IMG/VR virus record: IMGVR_UViG_2874920711_000009
Location: 1-44,255 of that record
Length of the DNA stretch: 44,255 nt
Direction: 5' to 3' (one strand)
Source: a virus
Lineage: Duplodnaviria > Heunggongvirae > Uroviricota > Caudoviricetes
Part shown: positions 996 through 39,079 of the stretch, one piece after another
Layout: the number at the start of each line of letters is the position of its first letter
Numbering within the stretch: the first letter of the stretch is position 1
Notes under the pieces: model-generated
What the model saw: only the letters and a program-made list of their open reading frames with translations
The model's database searches: none
Told to the model about the DNA's origin: nothing
Program-made: the position numbers and the translations under genes

Positions 996-2148
996 AATAG
1001 CTGCGCTTAATACCGCTACACTTTTGCCAGTCCATGTTTGCCTCCGGGGAATGGGCTGACGGTTTCCATAAAATGGCGAACTTTTTTCAACAGTTGCCAC
1101 ATTGAGCGGCACTGATGATTACGCGTTATTGTGTCGTGAAGTGCCTGCCATAGCCGTTCAACATGATTCACCCATGGCGAGTAAACCGGCTGATAAATGA
1201 CCCTGAACTTCGGGTTCTCCTTCAGCCAGCTCTGTGTTTCCCGGCTTTTGTGGATAATGTAGTTGTCCACGATCAGCGTGATGGTTTTCGCCCGACGGTA
1301 TGTCGCTTTAAGCCGCTTCAGCAGGCTGATGAACAGCGCCGAACTTTTGCTGTTGCCGCCCACATAGCTGACTTTACCTGTCCCGCTGTGCAGCGCTCCG
1401 GCCAGATAATATTTTTCATTCTGTCCCGGCGTGACCACCCGTTTTTGCTGTCCGCGCAGTTGCCAGTCCGCACCGATTTTGGGATGAAGATGGATATCCA
1501 CTTCATCTTCATAAAAGACCGGATGCTCTGCGCTGCATTCGTCCAGTGCTTTATGGATTGCTGCCATCTTTTCATCTTTATGCGGGTCACGGATACGCAG
1601 AGTTGGCGCAGCCCTTCGCCACACAATCCCCGCAGACGGCAACCAGCGGCGAACGGTTCCGGCATTTAACTGGCAACCGGTTATCTCATTGATTTTTATT
1701 GCCAGCAGTTCTGTACTCCAGCGTGAACGCTGGTAGACAAAGTCGCCGGGAGAATGTTTTACCAGCTCACGTAACAGTGTGCAGATATGCTCAAACGGCC
1801 AGCGACGGGCACGCCCGGCAGGTAATGATTTCAGTCCCTCAACACCCGACTGCGTGAACCAGTTAATCCAGCGTCCAACAGAGGAACGGGCGCAGCAGAG
1901 CGTTCTGGCAACGTCGCTGACACGGTCGCCCCGGTGCAGCATCAGCATGGCAGTCAGTCTGCGGGCATAATTTTTATCGTGTGTTTTATGGATGGCTTTC
2001 TGCATCAGGCGTCGTTCGTCACGGGAAATTGGTGCTATGATCGGCATTGCTCAGTCCGGTTGGTGATTTGTTTTGATTTGGCGATTGATCAGATCGCACA
2101 ATCCGGGCTAAGTTCCCTCAAAGTGATCTACTATTCCGCGCAGCTATT
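996..2148 (-). mobile_element. IS630-family insertion sequence, 1153 bp
   Basis: 343-aa IS630-type transposase inside; terminal inverted repeats AATAGCTGCGC; flanked by TA on both sides within a CTAG target (993..995 and 2149..2151). Confidence 0.85.
1016..2047 (-). CDS. IS630-family transposase
   Basis: 343-aa ORF of typical IS630 transposase length and sequence character, bounded by the IS inverted repeats. Confidence 0.9.
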   Translation of the reverse strand: MPIIAPISRDERRLMQKAIHKTHDKNYARRLTAMLMLHRGDRVSDVARTLCCARSSVGRWINWFTQSGVEGLKSLPAGRARRWPFEHICTLLRELVKHSPGDFVYQRSRWSTELLAIKINEITGCQLNAGTVRRWLPSAGIVWRRAAPTLRIRDPHKDEKMAAIHKALDECSAEHPVFYEDEVDIHLHPKIGADWQLRGQQKRVVTPGQNEKYYLAGALHSGTGKVSYVGGNSKSSALFISLLKRLKATYRRAKTITLIVDNYIIHKSRETQSWLKENPKFRVIYQPVYSPWVNHVERLWQALHDTITRNHQCRSMWQLLKKVRHFMETVSPFPGGKHGLAKV

Positions 2149-2916
2149 TAGTTTTCGGATGAAATCAATGTCATTACCTTTATAAAAAACAGCCTTTGTA
2201 TCTGTAGATACTAGCCAGTTTCGCTCAACTGCTTTCTGTTTATCAAGGCGATAAAGCATGCTGGTTTGTTCAAGGCCTAAATATACATCCCAACTAAGAA
2301 ATACTTCGGTTTTCTTTTCTCGGCAAGCTATAAACAGAGTAGGAGTAACCGCTTCTCCAAATGGAGTTCTGATATAATCATCACTTTCTAACGATAAAAT
2401 TACATTTTTCGAATCATCAATTGGCGATGTAGTAATGGATGTGTGCCATTTTCCTACATCTGTGGCTTTCTCTAATTTTGATTCAGCTTGAACGGCTTTA
2501 TCCTGTGGGAATAGTTTATCGTAGCAGTTTAGTCTGGCTTCTTTATCATTTTCTGCACGACATTTAGATATCTCAGAAAAATTTGGTTGCTGAGCCTCTG
2601 TTGTTACTGGCTTTTCCGTTTTAGATTTTGAGTTTACAGATGGAGTAAATGTTGGAGAAAAGAAACGATCATAACAAGATAAACGTCTATCATCATCTTT
2701 CTCATCAGGGCATTGATCTCTGCTTTCGAATTTTTCAGCAACTTTCGTTCGAGTCGGTTGTATTGACTTATCGTAACAAGAAAGTCTGTCTTTATTATTT
2801 TCTATTGCTCGGCACTGGAGTACTGCATTGAAGTTCTTATGTTCAGTTGCTGCGTGAACAGGCAGTACACTAATTGATATAAATGATGCACCTATAGAAA
2901 AAATTATATTTTTCAT
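2131..2916 (-). CDS. secreted protein with three Cys-containing repeats (C-x8-9-RLxCYD[KR]); 3' end replaced by IS630
   Basis: N-terminal signal peptide MKNIIFSIGASFISISVLPVHA; last 6 codons and stop (KLNSCAE*) are encoded by the IS630 terminal repeat; low GC. Confidence 0.6.
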   Translation of the reverse strand: MKNIIFSIGASFISISVLPVHAATEHKNFNAVLQCRAIENNKDRLSCYDKSIQPTRTKVAEKFESRDQCPDEKDDDRRLSCYDRFFSPTFTPSVNSKSKTEKPVTTEAQQPNFSEISKCRAENDKEARLNCYDKLFPQDKAVQAESKLEKATDVGKWHTSITTSPIDDSKNVILSLESDDYIRTPFGEAVTPTLFIACREKKTEVFLSWDVYLGLEQTSMLYRLDKQKAVERNWLVSTDTKAVFYKGNDIDFIRKLNSCAE

Positions 2917-2920
2917 TTTA

Positions 2921-3253
2921 TTATCCCTTTGGTTTAGTAAGAAATACTAAAATTCCGATAATGATATCGCCAATAACCCATAAGCTTCCAATGGTAATTA
3001 AACCTAAGCCTGTACCAATAACTGCACCGGCTTTTTCGGCATCGGATGTGGCATTATTTATTATTTCACTAGTGCCTCCTAGTCCAACTAAAAGCGTATA
3101 GGTCATAAAAATATTAAATAATATAAAAACCCACTTAATGATCCGTCCAAAAAATGAACGCTTAAGTTTTTGTAGTTGTTTACCACAAGCAGGGCAATAC
3201 AATGCTGAATCGCTTACCTCTTTCTGGCATTCAGGACATTTGATTAATGCCAT
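2921..3253 (-). CDS. zinc-ribbon membrane protein
   Basis: CPEC..x13..CPACG ribbon followed by two hydrophobic helices; 4 bp upstream of the secreted-protein gene, same strand; low GC. Confidence 0.6.
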   Translation of the reverse strand: MALIKCPECQKEVSDSALYCPACGKQLQKLKRSFFGRIIKWVFILFNIFMTYTLLVGLGGTSEIINNATSDAEKAGAVIGTGLGLITIGSLWVIGDIIIGILVFLTKPKG

Positions 3254-3513: not shown

Positions 3514-3654
3514 TTACTGCTTACACTGTAAGAACGCCGCAAACTCCGCTCCCCAGAAGCTCATCCGTATTTCACACAGCGAACCGTGTAGCATCCAGAT
3601 GATGAGGATTACCGTCACGCAGAACGTGATGGCCGTAAGCGATTTTTGCGACAT
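3514..3654 (-). CDS. Hok/Gef-family type I toxin-like peptide (46 aa)
   Basis: Hand translation MSQKSLTAITFCVTVILIIWMLHGSLCEIRMSFWGAEFAAFLQCKQ: N-terminal TM helix then LCEIR..x6..EFAAF, matching the Hok/Gef motif LCE[IV]R..EVAAF; not in the ORF track (under 60 aa). Confidence 0.5.
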   Translation of the reverse strand: MSQKSLTAITFCVTVILIIWMLHGSLCEIRMSFWGAEFAAFLQCKQ

Positions 3655-10498: not shown

Positions 10499-10993
10499 AT
10501 GGCCATGATGATGATCTACGGCATGTTTGTTTTTGAGCTGCGCACGTTGCCGCATCAGCAGTTACAGCAAAACAAAAGCTGGCGACATGTGAAAAATGAA
10601 CGCGTTAACCGTTCAGCAAGCTGGCAGTATATCGGTGCAGGTGATGATCGCATCGTTCTTTCTGGTGTTCTTTATCCTGAGATTACTGGTGGCGAAGTGT
10701 CGCTGTCGTTGTTGACCACGCAGGCATATACAGGACGTCCTTGGCCTTTGATTGATGGCGTCGGGCAGATTTACGGCATGTATGTCCTGACCGGAACGAA
10801 TACGACCCGCTCCGAGTTTGATCGCTACGGTAAGGCGAAAAAGATAGAATTTTCACTGACTCTTGAACGCTGTGATGAGGATTTGCGGGAGCGCCTGCAA
10901 TCCTCATCGTTCAGCGATATGCTGTCCGGCTTCAAAGATAAGGTGACATCATCCCTTAATAGCGCGGCCAGCTCAGTTAAGGGGCTGCTCTGA
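10499..10993 (+). CDS. U: tail protein gpU
   Basis: 164-aa ORF with GAGGAG RBS; MMMIYGMFVFELRT... resembles P2 gpU. Confidence 0.85.
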   Translation: MAMMMIYGMFVFELRTLPHQQLQQNKSWRHVKNERVNRSASWQYIGAGDDRIVLSGVLYPEITGGEVSLSLLTTQAYTGRPWPLIDGVGQIYGMYVLTGTNTTRSEFDRYGKAKKIEFSLTLERCDEDLRERLQSSSFSDMLSGFKDKVTSSLNSAASSVKGLL

Positions 10994-11149
10994 TTTAACG
11001 TATGTCGCCAATTTCCTGATGAAGGTGACTGGCGACTTGCTGTTGTATGTCCTTCTCAGAAAATTGTTTTTGAATAACAAATAACAGGATTTTATAATCT
11101 CTTAACCTTATAACATGTGTGGTCTGAAATAATAATTAAGGAGATTATC

Positions 11150-11722
11150 GTGCTATCTTACTTAATGGCAATTCACTTTGTTTTATTTGGAAACTCTACT
11201 AATTTAAAAAACTTCTGGAAACATGAAGTAATTCGGCGGAAACGTATGGATATCTGGAGGCTTTTAAGAGAGAAAAAGCAGCGTAACCGGAATTTCCTTT
11301 TCTGGTGGCGGTTGGCTAACGAAATGTATATTAATGGTAATAAATTACATAAGAAAGCAGCCAAAAAGTTAAACAGTAAAATAATTAACAAGTTTGGTTG
11401 TGAAATAGGATTGGGCGCAAATATTGGAAAAGGGTTGACAATTCCCCATCATGCTGGAATTGTTGTTCATTTTGCTGTTGATGCGGGTGAAAATCTGGTA
11501 TTACGACAGAATACTACCATTGGACAGATAGATGGTGATATGCCTGGTTCAAGAGTAAAAATTGGTAGTAACGTTGATATCGGAGCTAATTGTTGCATCA
11601 TTGGATTATCACGTAAAATTGGGGATAATGTAAAAATAGGTGCAATGTCTTTTATAAATAAAGATATACCATCAAATTGCACATATATAACTAAAAAGAG
11701 TGGTGTTGTATTGTATAAATAG
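11150..11722 (+). CDS. hexapeptide-repeat acetyltransferase (serine O-acetyltransferase / WcaB-like), low-GC cargo
   Basis: IGLGANIGKGLTIPHHAGIVVH...IG.N..IG hexapeptide repeats; AAGGAG RBS 7 nt before GTG 11150 (ORF track frame opens at 11117); AT-rich. Confidence 0.65.
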   Translation: MLSYLMAIHFVLFGNSTNLKNFWKHEVIRRKRMDIWRLLREKKQRNRNFLFWWRLANEMYINGNKLHKKAAKKLNSKIINKFGCEIGLGANIGKGLTIPHHAGIVVHFAVDAGENLVLRQNTTIGQIDGDMPGSRVKIGSNVDIGANCCIIGLSRKIGDNVKIGAMSFINKDIPSNCTYITKKSGVVLYK

Positions 11723-11729
11723 AGTACAT

Positions 11730-11769
11730 AAAGCCATCGATATTTTTGTCGATGGCTTTTTCTTTTTAT
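11730..11769 (+). terminator. rho-independent terminator
   Basis: 11-bp stem AAAGCCATCGA/TCGATGGCTTT with 8-nt loop followed by a T-run. Confidence 0.55.
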
Positions 11770-12343
11770 TGTGGGGCGACTGGCCACTCAACATCCGCTG
11801 CTACTGTTGTATCAACACGATTCAACAATACCCGATATGTCTTCCATGCAGCCAGTAACGATGCCTCTTCCTCCGTCGCAATATCCAAATCTACGGCATC
11901 CTGAAGTGGCGCAATATGCTCACTGGCTACCTGCATCAGGCTGTTTTTTGTTTCTTCTGCCTCCCGTACCCGAAACAGTTTTTCTGCTTCTGCATCTTTC
12001 GCCCAGGATGTGCCGTTCCACTTCTGACACTCTCCATCCGGCGACAACTAGGTAACATTTTCCGGTAACGGACCGAGTTCAGAAATAAATAACGCGTCCC
12101 CTGATGCCACGTCATAAACAGTTTTACCCCGATGATCTTCAACGAGATGCCACGATGCCTCATCACTGTTGAAAACAGCCACGAAGCCAGCCGGAATATC
12201 TGGCGGTGCAATATCGGTACTGTTTGCAGGCAGACCTGTATGAGGTGGAATGTATGCATCACCTTCCCCAATAAATTCATTAGTTCCGGCCAGCAGGTTA
12301 TAAATTTTTATGGCCGTGATTGTTCACTCATTCTGAAATCCAT
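11766..12343 (-). pseudogene. tfa: tail fibre assembly chaperone (Tfa family), inactivated
   Basis: Body ...[22 protein letters not shown]...[27 protein letters not shown] is Tfa-like; frame break after codon 11 at a T5/A5 run and an in-frame TAG (ENVT*LSPDG) near 12051. Confidence 0.7.
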
Positions 12344-12351
12344 GTTCACCT

Positions 12352-13254
12352 CTACTTAATATCAGAGACAGAATATTGTTTATTGAGCGTATGGGTGGGA
12401 GTACCAATAACGATGCTACTTCCGTGGCTATGTGCGCCAGAGGTGACATTACCTACGGGATTTTCTGGATTAATCCGGTGTATATGCGAACCAGGGCGAA
12501 AACGGTTATTAGCCTGATGTTGTATCAGTACATCATCAGCCTGATGTTCAGGGTTAATACAGACTTGCCCGGAACGTGAGCAACACGTCCGATAATCGCC
12601 GCATCCAATATATTTAGTATCCGCATAACGGCAAACAGAATTACCCGGACAGTATGCATATGTGCCAAATACTGCCGACTGGCGAGATTGTGCGTATTCC
12701 CAGTTAATTGATTCTGTTTTTTTATTAAAGTTATCCCATGCCTGCTTCATCTGTCGTGCAACACTTTCAAACGGCACCTGACCACATCCGGCCCCCATTG
12801 CAGGGAATACCACTGTTTTTATTTTCATGTCTGTCGTTGCGTTTTTATTGTGCTGAAAGATGGCAAGCAGAGCGGCCCAGGTTGCGTTATATACAGCGTC
12901 TGTTCCGTCAATTGTCAACGGAACACGCATTGTTGGCGCATGTACCAGCCAGGGGTGATGATTATGCCCCGTTTCAATGACAAATGCAGAACCTACAGGC
13001 TGTTCGCCGAGATATTCACGAAGAATATGATTCTGAACGCGGGACTGTAACTGAGTACCGAAGAATGCGGTAATGGCGGCATCAACGCCACCATCCATCA
13101 GGCCGAAACTATTTGCCGCACTTACCATGCAGTCAAATTGTCTGATTGTTTCAAATGGCTTTCCGACAATATTCACACTATCTGCATTTGCAAATATCCG
13201 TTTAAATGCTTCAGCCATTTCTGTTACTGGTGCAGAAAGAATGAGCGTAATCAT
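12352..13254 (-). CDS. macro-domain protein with C-terminal Cys/His-rich extension
   Basis: Macro-domain motifs [62 protein letters not shown]; start ATG 13254..13252 overlaps the H stop TGA 13253..13251. Confidence 0.7.
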
Positions 13255-15397
13255 GCAAGCCTCACAATATAGTTAAATGCGATGTTTTTTACGGTGTTTT
13301 CTGCGTTACCCGTAGCGTTAACGGTGATGGTATGCCCGTGTGAACCTATCGCAACGGAGTGTGTGTGTGCACCAATTCCTACCGTATGAGTGTGTGCGCC
13401 AATATTTACTGTGTGAGAGTGCCCCCTGCGTTACTTGTTTTTCCAGTGCCAAGCCCTGAGTTATAACCAGCCGAAACACCATTACCAGCACCAGTGTTAC
13501 CAACAGGAATATTGTGTGAATGATCCCCGGCGCTATTCGTGGTTTTAGTGCCATGGTTAAATGAACTGGACGTCTTGGTACCGTAATCAAACGACGATGT
13601 GGTTTTCGTCCCCAAATCCGTACTGGATGCACTGGCGCTGTGGGTGTGCGATTTAATGCCGTCCTGTTCCTGAGACAATACTGCACGACCACTGGCGGGC
13701 TTGCCCTTAATCGTCCAGCTACGCATATCAGGGATCACGCCTGACGGATAAGCGGCTGCAAGTTTCGGGTATGCAGATTTGTCAAAAGTCTGCCCCTGCA
13801 TCAGGGCATAACCAGACGGAACGGTATCTGATGGCCAAGGGATCGGTGCGCCAACCGGATAAAGTTCATGAGGCGAAATATACAGCGAATAAACAGAACC
13901 GTCCGTTAATCCTTCCGGCTTATTAGCAGAATATGCTGGTGAAGTATGAATCGTTACGCTGGCGTTACTGGTATAATCCCACTGAATATTAACACCTGTG
14001 GCGTAATTACCTATTTCAACATAAACATCATAGGTATCACCGGATGTATTCACCCATGCAAAATTAGTAAATCCAACCGATGTCCGTCGCCATAACGCAC
14101 CAGTAAGACCTTTTGGATTTCCATTTCCCGCACGAAGAACAAGTTCAGATATACCTGCCTGTTGAGGTGACTCTACGTTAAATCCCGCGCCACCAATCAA
14201 CGTAATTGAAACAACAGAACTCGCCTGCGGCATGGTTACCGTTGCTAATTTGAACCAACCAGCACCACCGCTGAATGACATAGTTGTTGAGTTAAGCGTA
14301 CCAATATCTTTCGGCGTCAGTGTAATATCCGCTGAAAGCGCCTTACCATTCACCTTACGGGCAGAAGGTACCCGACCATTCGCATTGTCATTAGCTGCTT
14401 TCACTGCTTTCGGTGTCGCGGCAAGCGTTTCAGATGTGCTGTTAGTCGCGCTGCTTAGCTGGACAATCCCTTTTTGTGCTGTCGTAGCGTCCTGAGCGGT
14501 ATATTTCCCGTTAGCAAGGTCATATGCTGTCTTTACCGCTTTCGGTGTTGCGGCCGGTGCTTCAGACGTGCTGTTGGTGGCGCTACTGAGCTGGACAAGG
14601 CCTTTCCGCGCTGTGGTGGCATCCTGCGCAGTATATTTCCCGTTAGCAAGGTCATATGCTGCCTTTACCGCCATTGGTGTTGCCGCCAGCGTTTCAGAAT
14701 CGCTGTTGGTGGCGCTACTGAGCTGGACAAGGCCTTTTCGCGCTGTGGTGGCATCCTGCGCAGTATATTTCCCGTTAGCAAGATCATACGCGGCCTTTAC
14801 TGCTTTCGGCGTTGCAGCCTGCGTTTCAGACACGCTGTTAGTGTCGCTACTGAGTTGAACAAAGCCTTTTGCGGTCAGCGAGGCGTCCGGGTGACGTCGT
14901 GACTGTTCATGTTCTTTCAGTTTGTCATTCACGTAATCCACTGTGGCCATAACCATGGTGTTATCCACGGTAAGCGCCACGGTGGCAGTGCTGGATACGG
15001 TCAGAATGGTGCGAAATGTTTGTGCACGTCCGGATCCTTCGGCAACGGTTGGTTTGTAACTTTCGGCAGTATTGCCCACCGCGATCAAATCGCCGTGCTC
15101 ATCAAATACACCAATTTCCCGGATCCAGAATCCGCCCGTTTCAGGAGGAATAACCAGCTCCGCAATAATGCGGTTCTGATGTGTTGCGTCCAGGATGACG
15201 CGATTAACAGTATGTCGCCACACCTCATGCACCAGACGGGTCTGCTTACTGTCTGGTGTGGGCAACGTGCCGCCACCGTCGCCCACGGCCATATGAGTCA
15301 GGCGGACAGGATTACCATCTGGCGCGGCAGCCTGAGCTAATTTTTTGGCACCAGTATCAGTGATAATGGTTTTAAATTTTCGTGTTGTGGTACTCAT
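13251..15397 (-). pseudogene. H: tail fibre protein gpH, frame break at a C5/G5 run near 13422..13426
   Basis: 663-aa ORF 13406..15397 plus out-of-frame C-terminus [57 protein letters not shown]; one extra G would restore the frame. Confidence 0.85.
14410..14890. repeat. four tandem copies of a ~114-bp coding repeat inside H
   Basis: Repeated 38-aa unit KG[FLI][36 protein letters not shown] visible in protein and DNA. Confidence 0.7.
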
Positions 15398-30178: not shown

Positions 30179-30781
30179 ATGAATTCCCAGACAACAAAAG
30201 ATATTCCCTGCTTCCGTTCTTATTTGCCTGATGCCCTGCGTTTAAGATTTGAAGATAAACTGACCATCCGGGCCATCGCTCAGCGTCTGGGTCTCAGTCA
30301 TTCCACAATACATACGCTTTTTCAGCGATTTCTTGCATCCGGTATCGCATGGCCATTGCCCGATTCAGTTTCATTCGCTCAACTTGACGCCATCCTTTAT
30401 GCCAACAGAAAGAAGGAATTAACAGAGCCTCAAATCAGAGAAGGCTCATGGCGAAAAGAACGGCGAACCAGCTATAGCCGTGAATTTAAGGTCCGTCTGG
30501 CTAAGCAGGCGTTACAGCCTGGGGCTGTTGTTGCCCGGATCGCCAGAGAACACGATATCAATGATAACCTGCTGTTTAAATGGAAAAGCCAGTACGAGGA
30601 CGGCTTACTGAGCGATGATGACATACAGGAATGCATGCCTGTCCCGGTGGCACTGACTGATACGCCGGAGCCGACCAGACCAGTTACAAATCCCTTCTGG
30701 CGTAACAAGCATGATGAGCGCCCTGAGGGGCTCCCGGAAACGTCCCACGGTGCGAGCTGCATCTTAAATCAGGTGTGGTAA
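30179..30781 (+). CDS. IS66-family TnpA-like protein (HTH)
   Basis: ORF track; 3' end differs from copy B by a G4/G5 homopolymer length. Confidence 0.7.
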   Translation: MNSQTTKDIPCFRSYLPDALRLRFEDKLTIRAIAQRLGLSHSTIHTLFQRFLASGIAWPLPDSVSFAQLDAILYANRKKELTEPQIREGSWRKERRTSYSREFKVRLAKQALQPGAVVARIAREHDINDNLLFKWKSQYEDGLLSDDDIQECMPVPVALTDTPEPTRPVTNPFWRNKHDERPEGLPETSHGASCILNQVW

Positions 30782-38173: not shown

Positions 38174-39079
38174 CTATATTTCCAGACATCTGTTATCACT
38201 TAACCCATTACAAGCCCGCTGCCGCAGATATTCCCGTGGCGAGCGATAACCCAGCGCACTATGCGGATGCCATTCGTTATAATGCTCGAACGCCTCTGCA
38301 AGGTTCTTTGCTGCCGTTAACCCGTCTGGTTTGGGCATGATACTGATGTAGTCACGCTTTATCGTTTTCACGAAGCTCTCTGCTATTCCGTTACTCTCCG
38401 GACTCCGCACCGCCGTGTTCTTCGGTTCAAGTCCCAACATCCGGGCGAACTGGCGTGTTTCATTAGCCCGGTAGCATGAACCATTATCCGTCAGCCACTC
38501 CACTGGAGACGACGGAAGATCGTTGCCGAAGCGGCGTTCCACCGCTCCCAGCATGACGTCCTGTACTGTTTCACTGTTGAAGCCGCCGGTAGTCACCGCC
38601 CAGTGCAGTGCCTCACGATCACAGCAGTCCAGCGCGAACGTGACACGCAGTCTCTCTCCGTTATCACAGCAGAACTCGAACCCGTCAGAGCACCATCGCT
38701 GATTGCTTTCTTTCACGGCCACTCTGCCTGTATGTGCCCGTTTCGATGGCGGTACAGCAGGTTTTCGCTCAAGCAACAGCGCATTCTGGCGCATGATCCG
38801 GTAAACACGTTTGGCATTAATCGCAGGCATACCATCAAGTTCTGCCTGTCTGCGAAGCAGCGCCCATACCCGACGATAACCATACGTGGGCAGCTCTCCG
38901 ATAACATGGTGTATACGGAGAAGCACATCCGTATCATCAGTGTGACGACTGCGGCGGCCATCCATCCAGTCATCGGTTCGTCTGAGAATGACGTGCAACT
39001 GCGCACGCGACACCCGGAGACAACGGCTGACTAAGCTTACTCTCCATCCCCGGGCAATAAGGGCGCGTGCGCTATCCAC
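38174..39079 (-). CDS. insD: IS2 transposase OrfB
   Basis: 301-aa IS3-family transposase with DDE region. Confidence 0.9.

Follow-up and report, generated by a model that had tools for sequence, protein, structure and literature searches.

In phage P2, the gene fun(Z), whose product blocks phage T5, lies directly downstream of and convergent with the fiber assembly gene G, with a terminator between the two. The content of this position differs among relatives (bioRxiv 10.1101/2024.10.15.618418), and the Z/fun hotspot with its mixed cargo has been well described (PMC9122126; bioRxiv 10.1101/2024.10.15.618418; PMC13586616). We analyzed a comparable junction in a 44,255-nt stretch of viral DNA, IMG/VR virus record IMGVR_UViG_2874920711_000009, positions 1 to 44,255 (hereafter, the window). 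As a prophage, the window belongs to the P2 family and there to the P88-like (Xuanwuvirus) type, with 90-95% identity from D through U to phages 500465-2, phiSM, P884B11, and P88. Between its tail gene U and a convergent tail-fiber assembly (chaperone) gene, tfa, it carries a gene for a left-handed beta-helix (LbH) acetyltransferase. On balance, we consider it probable, if not strongly so, that this gene is a lysogenic-conversion moron, that is, a self-contained cargo unit with its own predicted promoter and terminator, whose product O-acetylates an envelope glycan.

Enzymes of this kind have precedents. The clearest for an LbH enzyme, NeuO of CUS-3, a P22-like prophage, is a hexapeptide-repeat O-acetyltransferase of K1 polysialic acid and thus an LbH enzyme encoded by a lysogenic-conversion gene; it is phase-variable via a 5' heptanucleotide repeat. 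Oac of Sf6 and GtrC are products of prophage genes, located next to int/att, that O-acetylate lipopolysaccharide (LPS) and thereby alter phage adsorption and serotype. Unlike Oac and GtrC as generally described, the window gene encodes a soluble LbH enzyme and is located next to a fiber chaperone gene. Phage O-antigen acetylases have been mentioned in general terms (PMC12373910, PMC4413052), seroconverting prophages employ acetyltransferases (PMC12373910), and prophage acetyltransferases predict capsule type in Klebsiella (PMC13123978). Two phage genes belong to the same family as the window gene and share its position convergent to tfa, namely sacF of JL22 (91.6% identity) and sat of Citrobacter phage phiNP (44%), but they reside on other phage backbones, that of JL22 being a P1-like phage-plasmid. 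The authors of the JL22 genome stated that it is unknown why the acetyltransferase is there (PMC9603915).

Based on annotated relatives, the gene order is ogr and D on the minus strand; FI, FII, E, E', T, and U on the plus strand; the acetyltransferase gene on the plus strand; and, convergent with it, tfa, a macro-domain gene, and H on the minus strand, followed by I, J, W, V, and further genes. The features at the junction are as follows.

10499-10993, plus strand: tail gene gpU, closing the FI-FII-E-T-U tail operon and bordering the slot on its left (Pfam Phage_P2_GpU, E = 1.5e-38)
10994-11050, plus strand: hairpin directly 3' of gpU (-21.2 kcal/mol, z = -4.6), with a weak U-tract after it
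11000-11779, no strand assigned: low-GC cargo island (GC 0.34), delimited by composition and homology boundaries
11070-11098, plus strand: putative sigma70-like promoter, TTGAAT-17-TATAAT, from a consensus scan (10 of 12 matches)
11138-11143, plus strand: ribosome-binding site AAGGAG, read from the sequence
11150-11722, plus strand: acetyltransferase coding sequence (CDS), 190-aa protein with five N-terminal helices and an LbH, predicted catalytic residues His100 and Glu85
11730-11769, no strand assigned: predicted intrinsic terminator separating the acetyltransferase gene from tfa at their convergent stops (terminator scan, folding)
11766-12344, minus strand: tail-fiber assembly (chaperone) gene tfa/G, a pseudogene here (Pfam Caudo_TAP, E = 5e-34)

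The longest open reading frame (ORF) in this interval spans 11117-11722 on the plus strand, and its likely start is the GTG at 11150, 6 nt 3' of the AAGGAG. Starting there gives a product of 190 aa, in agreement with the RefSeq gene models of close relatives and with the N-termini of homologs. The initial annotation had delimited the gene as 11117-11769; the first coordinate is indeed that of the longest ORF, but the CDS ends at 11722, and 11769 takes in the terminator. Its description of an AT-rich gene between the tail operon and the fiber/chaperone genes, with its own ribosome-binding site and terminator, was borne out. The terminator scan identified a 13-bp stem at 11730-11759 followed by TTCTTTTT. 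This hairpin is followed by U5CU5 on the plus strand (folding energy -19 kcal/mol, z = -6.7 against shuffled sequences) and by a weaker U-tract on the minus strand (-16.1 kcal/mol, z = -5.7); it probably acts in both directions. Transcription of the tail operon plausibly ends at the hairpin behind gpU, which would keep late transcription out of the cargo gene. TGT-N12-ACA, the activator motif of P2 late promoters, was not found in 10990-11160, giving no sign of Ogr-dependent late control. The sigma70-like promoter is only suggestive, and shuffled sequence yields a similar number of promoter-like sites. Because homology to an unrelated myovirus-type prophage (L102) begins at 11066, upstream of the promoter-like site, this site moves together with the acetyltransferase gene. 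Tandem Repeats Finder detected no tandem repeats in 10950-11800, and hence no NeuO-like phase-variation tract; in this respect, compared by described features rather than by sequence, the gene differs from that of NeuO.

The acetyltransferase CDS has a GC content of 0.34 (0.28 at third codon positions), compared with 0.50 for gpU, 0.48 for tfa, and 0.52 for the whole window. At the left edge of the low-GC island, homology with relatives of the invertase type (L103) is lost at 10999, and at the right edge, homology of the tfaQ/tfaR type begins at about 11779-11782. The gene yielded dN/dS values of 0.02-0.13 against four alleles, indicating purifying selection. Together with matches to PHROG 2154 and NCBIfam models and with 337 clusters of homologs, these values confirm a real gene rather than a chance ORF. 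We had also considered the intactness of the gene within a decayed prophage as a sign of selection and rejected it, since a gene of 573 bp would survive by chance in about 60% of cases when some 20 disruptions are spread over about 24 kb. Constraint is argued from dN/dS because intactness alone is uninformative at this lesion density. The features expected of a moron were all found: a predicted promoter-like site, a terminator, a GC content of 0.34 against 0.52, and presence or absence among near-identical phages, with one or the other acetyltransferase allele occupying 31 of the 80 loci that match the window in gpU at 99% identity or more.

To place the protein among LbH enzymes, we ranked its scores against curated hidden Markov models (HMMs) of NCBIfam. 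E-values ranged from 3e-21 to 7e-15 across the EpsC, CysE, and WcaB models. The EpsC model gave 75.8 bits against a cut-off of 150, the CysE models 61.7 against 210.65 (TIGR01172) and 36.8 against 397 (PRK11132), and the WcaB models 54.9 against 196 and 53.5 against 194.65, while NeuD, LacA, WbbJ, Maa, and WcaF trailed at 19-31 bits. The nearest models are therefore those of EpsC and WcaB, enzymes of polysaccharide loci, which score far above LacA, Maa, WcaF, WbbJ, and Vat/CatB. Judged by these scores, the protein can be placed in the CysE/WcaB/EpsC branch of LbH enzymes, passing no curated threshold. It resembles WcaB (colanic acid) and EpsC in that these are short LbH enzymes similar to serine acetyltransferases, with 146-168 model positions, that act in polysaccharide pathways and are its top NCBIfam models. 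However, membership in either family failed, as the scores of 55-76 bits lie under the equivalog cut-offs of 150-196, the gene resides in a prophage tail region rather than in a wca or eps locus, and the protein belongs to a separate clade of phages and mobile elements, PHROG 2154 (unknown function; E = 2e-87).

The predicted structure supports membership in the LbH superfamily. An AlphaFold2 model built from a 43-sequence alignment (predicted local distance difference test score, 85) shows five N-terminal helices followed by a beta-helix with short strands from residue 84, and Foldseek against the PDB returned a probability of 1.00 to LbH serine acetyltransferases; a Foldseek search of the BFVD viral structures returned nothing at E <= 0.001. 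Pfam Hexapep (24 bits) and Hexapep_2 (17.7 bits) fall below the gathering score of 27 for the window allele, whereas a second allele of the slot exceeds it (47.6 bits).

The best PDB matches in both fold and HMM searches were serine acetyltransferases, over the LbH part only, with alignments starting at profile position 54. Like CysE (TIGR01172; PDB 1t3d, 8i04, 6wye), the window protein combines a helical N-terminal part with an LbH bearing a His/acid dyad. In the profile alignment to Salmonella CysE (8i04), His158 corresponds to H100, which is at least 90% conserved, and Asp143 corresponds to E85, a position with D or E in the half of the 43 aligned members that was inspected. In CysE structures, Asp157, Arg192, and His193 are the serine-binding residues. 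Asp157 corresponds to P99, and Arg192/His193 to S134/R135, where the family alignment is variable. The protein is also shorter than CysE (190 against about 273 aa); about 80 helical residues precede the LbH, no Pfam match apart from Hexapep was found and thus no SATase_N domain, and the C-terminus ends ...VVLYK, without what we take to be the CysK-binding tail of CysE. Because the scores are below the cut-offs, SATase_N is missing, and the serine-binding positions are not conserved, the CysE label is unjustified. The protein thus looks like an active O-acetyltransferase with its His/acid dyad kept, wrongly named serine acetyltransferase. Of the initial annotation as a serine acetyltransferase/WcaB-type acyltransferase, the LbH fold and the CysE/WcaB/EpsC clade stand, but the serine acetyltransferase name does not.

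We next surveyed the slot across the 80 IMG/VR loci that share gpU with the window at 99% identity or more. The occupants were as follows.

26 of 80 loci: window acetyltransferase (allele 1), 96-100% identity
5 of 80 loci: second acetyltransferase allele, 36-37% identical
34 of 80 loci: DNA invertase, then an invertible pair of fiber-tip and chaperone genes
7 of 80 loci: 361-aa GT9-like (heptosyltransferase family) glycosyltransferase, GC 0.33
8 of 80 loci: too short to classify, or other content

The acetyltransferase and a host-range switch are thus alternative occupants of one junction. As an example of the latter, E. coli AR_0081 (L103, 5623-8326) carries a Cin/Gin-type recombinase and an invertible segment with a second fiber tip and two chaperone genes. 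The GT9-like protein passes the Pfam GT9 threshold and is encoded on the tfa strand (L184, 5592-6677, minus strand; also L123, L127, L135, L141, L145, and L151). In L135 and L141, a poly-A tract (A7 or A8, versus interrupted or longer versions) frameshifts this gene, which could reflect phase variation or a sequencing error.

This variety of occupants agrees with the initial description of the interval as a variable cargo slot. Its designation as Z/fun-equivalent holds on the G side, where, as in P2, variable cargo lies just downstream of G, with at least four alternative contents at the window junction. It does not hold on the other flank, formed in P2 by the pF promoter and FI but here by the 3' end of U, the FI-U block being inverted relative to P2. 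The two systems further differ in that fun(Z) encodes an unrelated protein from a 1,587-bp CDS, and in that the commonest alternative occupant here is a DNA invertase with an invertible fiber segment.

The acetyltransferase gene is not confined to this backbone. The unrelated prophage L102 shares window 11066-12343 at 91.7% identity, and the P1-like JL22 shares 11151-12337 at 91.3% as well as the fiber tip at 13247-13999 at 90%, indicating that the acetyltransferase and chaperone genes, sometimes with the fiber tip, move as a block between phage families. In JL22, the acetyltransferase gene lies between two convergent chaperone genes, next to cin. Across at least five unrelated phage backbones (P2-like, P1-like, phiNP, Hafnia yong2, and L102 type), the gene occurs at a convergent tfa. 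Within the census, the allele pairs co-vary, with acetyltransferases of 96-100% identity accompanied by tfa of 93-99% and the 37% allele by tfa of 78%, a pattern that physical linkage alone could explain.

To describe the distribution of the locus more widely, we searched 5,426 complete E. coli genomes and found the full 2-kb locus in 495 (~9%), including O157:H7, O55:H7, O39, O84, and O22 strains. The protein family comprises 337 clusters at E <= 1e-5, nearly all labeled "serine acetyltransferase." The initial annotation would have been contradicted by orthology to a housekeeping serine acetyltransferase without a phage link; instead, the close relatives were found in prophages, phage-plasmids, and plasmids. 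A 91.6% allele occurs in P1-like phages, including JL22; a 57% allele is located at a prophage end beside hok, adjoining host copA; a 50% allele closely follows the bundle-forming-pilus (bfp) genes on an enteropathogenic E. coli (EPEC) plasmid of the EAF type, among IS66 fragments (L096-L100, 5001-5594); and alleles of 35-44% occur in phiNP, Hafnia phage yong2, and ESSI2 Peduoviridae. In Xenorhabdus bovienii prophages (L106-L108, 6001-7393), an int-proximal unit consists of a 50% homolog followed directly, in the same orientation, by a GT25 LPS glycosyltransferase gene, convergent with the tail fiber. A 71%-identical allele occupies the same slot in other P2-like prophages. In these prophages, a class I S-adenosylmethionine-dependent methyltransferase gene (L087, 5937-6605, plus strand) lies between a truncated (87 aa) and a full-length tfa, an arrangement also present in several E. 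coli genomes (H119-H121).

When each species was represented by a single genome (80 loci, most of them at 40-50% identity), a recognizable tfa was present in only 6 of 80 loci, in five of which it was convergent at the 3' end of the gene with a stop-to-stop gap of 7-17 nt. Some of the distant homologs adjoin NeuB, GT2, GT9, or Kdo/WaaP-kinase genes.

Several lines of evidence point to a role in glycan modification: the nearest families act in polysaccharide pathways, a GT9-type LPS enzyme is alternative cargo in the identical slot, the Xenorhabdus prophage pairs a homolog with a GT25 LPS glycosyltransferase, distant homologs sit in glycan loci, and prophage acetyltransferases track capsule type in Klebsiella (PMC13123978). 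The initial annotation had suggested surface-polysaccharide modification with receptor masking as a possible role, a proposal to which the LPS-type glycosyltransferases among the alternative and partner cargo lend indirect support. The enzyme would be cytoplasmic and probably trimeric, using acetyl-CoA as the donor. His100 may act as the general base, positioned by Glu85, forming the same dyad as His158/Asp143 of CysE. The predicted acceptor is a sugar hydroxyl rather than serine, carried by an envelope-glycan precursor during its assembly on the cytoplasmic side of the inner membrane; candidates are the LPS core, the O-unit, enterobacterial common antigen (ECA), and an exopolysaccharide repeat. 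Expression from the prophage would then lead to O-acetylation of a surface glycan, that is, lysogenic conversion, which may alter phage adsorption, plausibly for phages with the linked fiber/chaperone module, and possibly antigenicity. The acceptor, expression in the lysogen, and the effect on phage adsorption are parts of this proposal that we infer. Since the carriers span many O-serogroups, a conserved glycan such as the LPS core, ECA, or colanic acid seems a more likely target than a serotype-specific O-unit.

A number of observations weigh against this reading or narrow it. The range of hosts, covering O157, O55, O39, O84, and O22, argues against a serotype-specific O-unit as the target. 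Classical phage O-antigen acetylases, such as Oac of Sf6 and GtrC, are integral-membrane acyltransferase-3 proteins and not LbH enzymes. About 74 of the 80 species-level homologs are not beside tfa, and many are orphan chromosomal genes. Thousands of lambdoid prophages have the same tfa type (tfaQ/tfaR) at ~90% identity but lack the acetyltransferase. A permissive convergent junction, combined with frequent exchange of fiber modules, could be all that lies behind the adjacency to tfa. The only papers mentioning the gene call it a fitness factor or its role unknown (PMC6456863, PMC9603915), and a functional study of this acetyltransferase family was not found in the literature.

How closely the enzyme is tied to the neighboring receptor-binding genes is a separate matter. 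It is conceivable, although doubtful, that the acetyltransferase is the matched "self-exclusion" partner of the adjoining receptor-binding module and masks the glycan receptor of the linked fiber. Fiber tip, chaperone, and acetyltransferase would then form one mobile cassette among P2-like, P1-like, and other myoviruses, and the specificity for a receptor would be passed on together with the means of masking it. An analogy is provided by T5, in which llp is encoded beside the receptor-binding protein gene. In another reading, which we consider unlikely, envelope-glycan acetylation is real but closeness to tfa is mere hitch-hiking at a permissive convergent junction, with the benefit lying in host fitness (immune evasion, colonization, or biofilm) and not in exclusion of phages with the linked fiber. 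The frequency of the same tfa type without the acetyltransferase is consistent with such hitch-hiking, as are the lack of phage linkage in most distant homologs, the copies at prophage ends beside hok and on the EPEC bfp plasmid, and the occurrence of the identical P0007 allele with two different fibers. The recurrence at convergent tfa in at least five unrelated backbones, with the gap of 7-17 nt in five genome loci, speaks for a closer association, as does the co-variation of acetyltransferase and tfa alleles among gpU-identical loci, to the extent that linkage alone does not yield it.

A substrate other than an envelope glycan is improbable. Under this explanation, the protein would act in intracellular anti-phage defense or counter-defense, or as a xenobiotic or antibiotic acetyltransferase. 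Z/fun and other P2 hotspots carry many defense systems, and a considerable fraction of the functionally uncharacterized genes at hotspots proved defensive (PMC9122126, PMC13586616, bioRxiv 10.1101/2024.10.15.618418); the adjoining macro-domain cargo is another candidate for phage-host conflict. However, a scan of PADLOC-DB v2 matched the acetyltransferase to 0 families even at E <= 0.1, the protein is a single small enzyme without a sensor or effector partner, and its partner and alternative cargo are glycosyltransferases rather than defense genes. LbH enzymes do include the Vat/CatB resistance enzymes, but the matches are weak and confined to allele 2, at ~25 bits against cut-offs of 300-475. 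Finally, a genuine serine O-acetyltransferase, serving as an auxiliary metabolic gene that raises O-acetylserine/cysteine supply, is suggested by the RefSeq and GenBank names, the CysE enzymes among the best PDB matches, and the retained dyad, but is highly improbable given the TIGR01172 and PRK11132 scores, the roughly 80 helical residues in place of SATase_N, the unconserved Asp157, Arg192, and His193 positions, and the tail-less C-terminus.

The P2 Z/fun hotspot with mixed cargo was already known, and acetyltransferase-mediated seroconversion is a classical theme. What is new is that the "serine acetyltransferase" label is wrong, together with the census of slot competitors and the finding that the gene travels with the fiber chaperone gene across phage families. 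Should the enzyme O-acetylate the LPS core or a different conserved glycan of the envelope, an uncharacterized surface-modifying gene would be present in ~9% of complete E. coli genomes. Such a gene could affect phage susceptibility, the host range of phage therapy, and antigenicity, and a widespread mis-annotation as "serine O-acetyltransferase" would be corrected. The chaperone-side junction in P2-like, P1-like, and other myoviruses would then represent a recurrent site for LPS-modifying cargo (acetyltransferases, GT9, and GT25), and "guilt by location" predictions at this junction would be more specific than a general defense-hotspot label.

The prophage in the window is itself defective. 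Each of FII, T, J, W, lysB, the holin gene, X, N, O, P, and Q is fragmented, its pieces lying in different frames, and the decay covers 5400-26500 as well as 1016-2047, 30179-30781, 38174-39079, 40539-42053, and 42457-43131. The tfa gene has lost its start (HGFQNE* replaces MDFRMSEQS) and contains an in-frame TAG, from TGG, at 12048-12050. Transposase genes of the IS630, IS3, and IS66 types are present, and the IS630-type gene disrupts a VasI/TagO-like cargo gene. This decay resembles that of Shigella-like genomes or an error-rich assembly; among complete E. coli genomes, there was no match to the window better than about 97-99%. Other cargo lies near the ogr/att end (2131-3253 and 3517-3654, both minus strand) and comprises genes for a VasI/TagO-like protein, a zinc-ribbon protein, and a hok/gef toxin; relatives also carry a RES-domain gene (L002, 18602-19429).

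Adjacent to tfa, a 300-aa macro-domain protein is encoded at 12352-13254 on the minus strand, with Pfam Macro at residues 44-169 and about 120 C-terminal residues to which no domain was assigned. The gene is a precise insertion of ~906 bp (12344-13249) between the H stop and the tfa start, within the late fiber operon. It was found in 10 of the 26 allele-1 loci; it is missing from L087, L090, L101, L102, and JL22, and it was likewise not found with the acetyltransferase in phiNP or yong2. We considered a functional pair of acetyltransferase and macro-domain protein, based on O-acetyl-ADP-ribose chemistry, and rejected it because the macro gene is a separate, precise insertion present in only those 10 loci. 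The protein belongs to PHROG 2613 (unknown function), has a weak match to DarG (E = 0.007), and finds its best PDB match in the macro domain of TTHA0132. Expressed late, it could act in counter-defense by reversing ADP-ribosylation.

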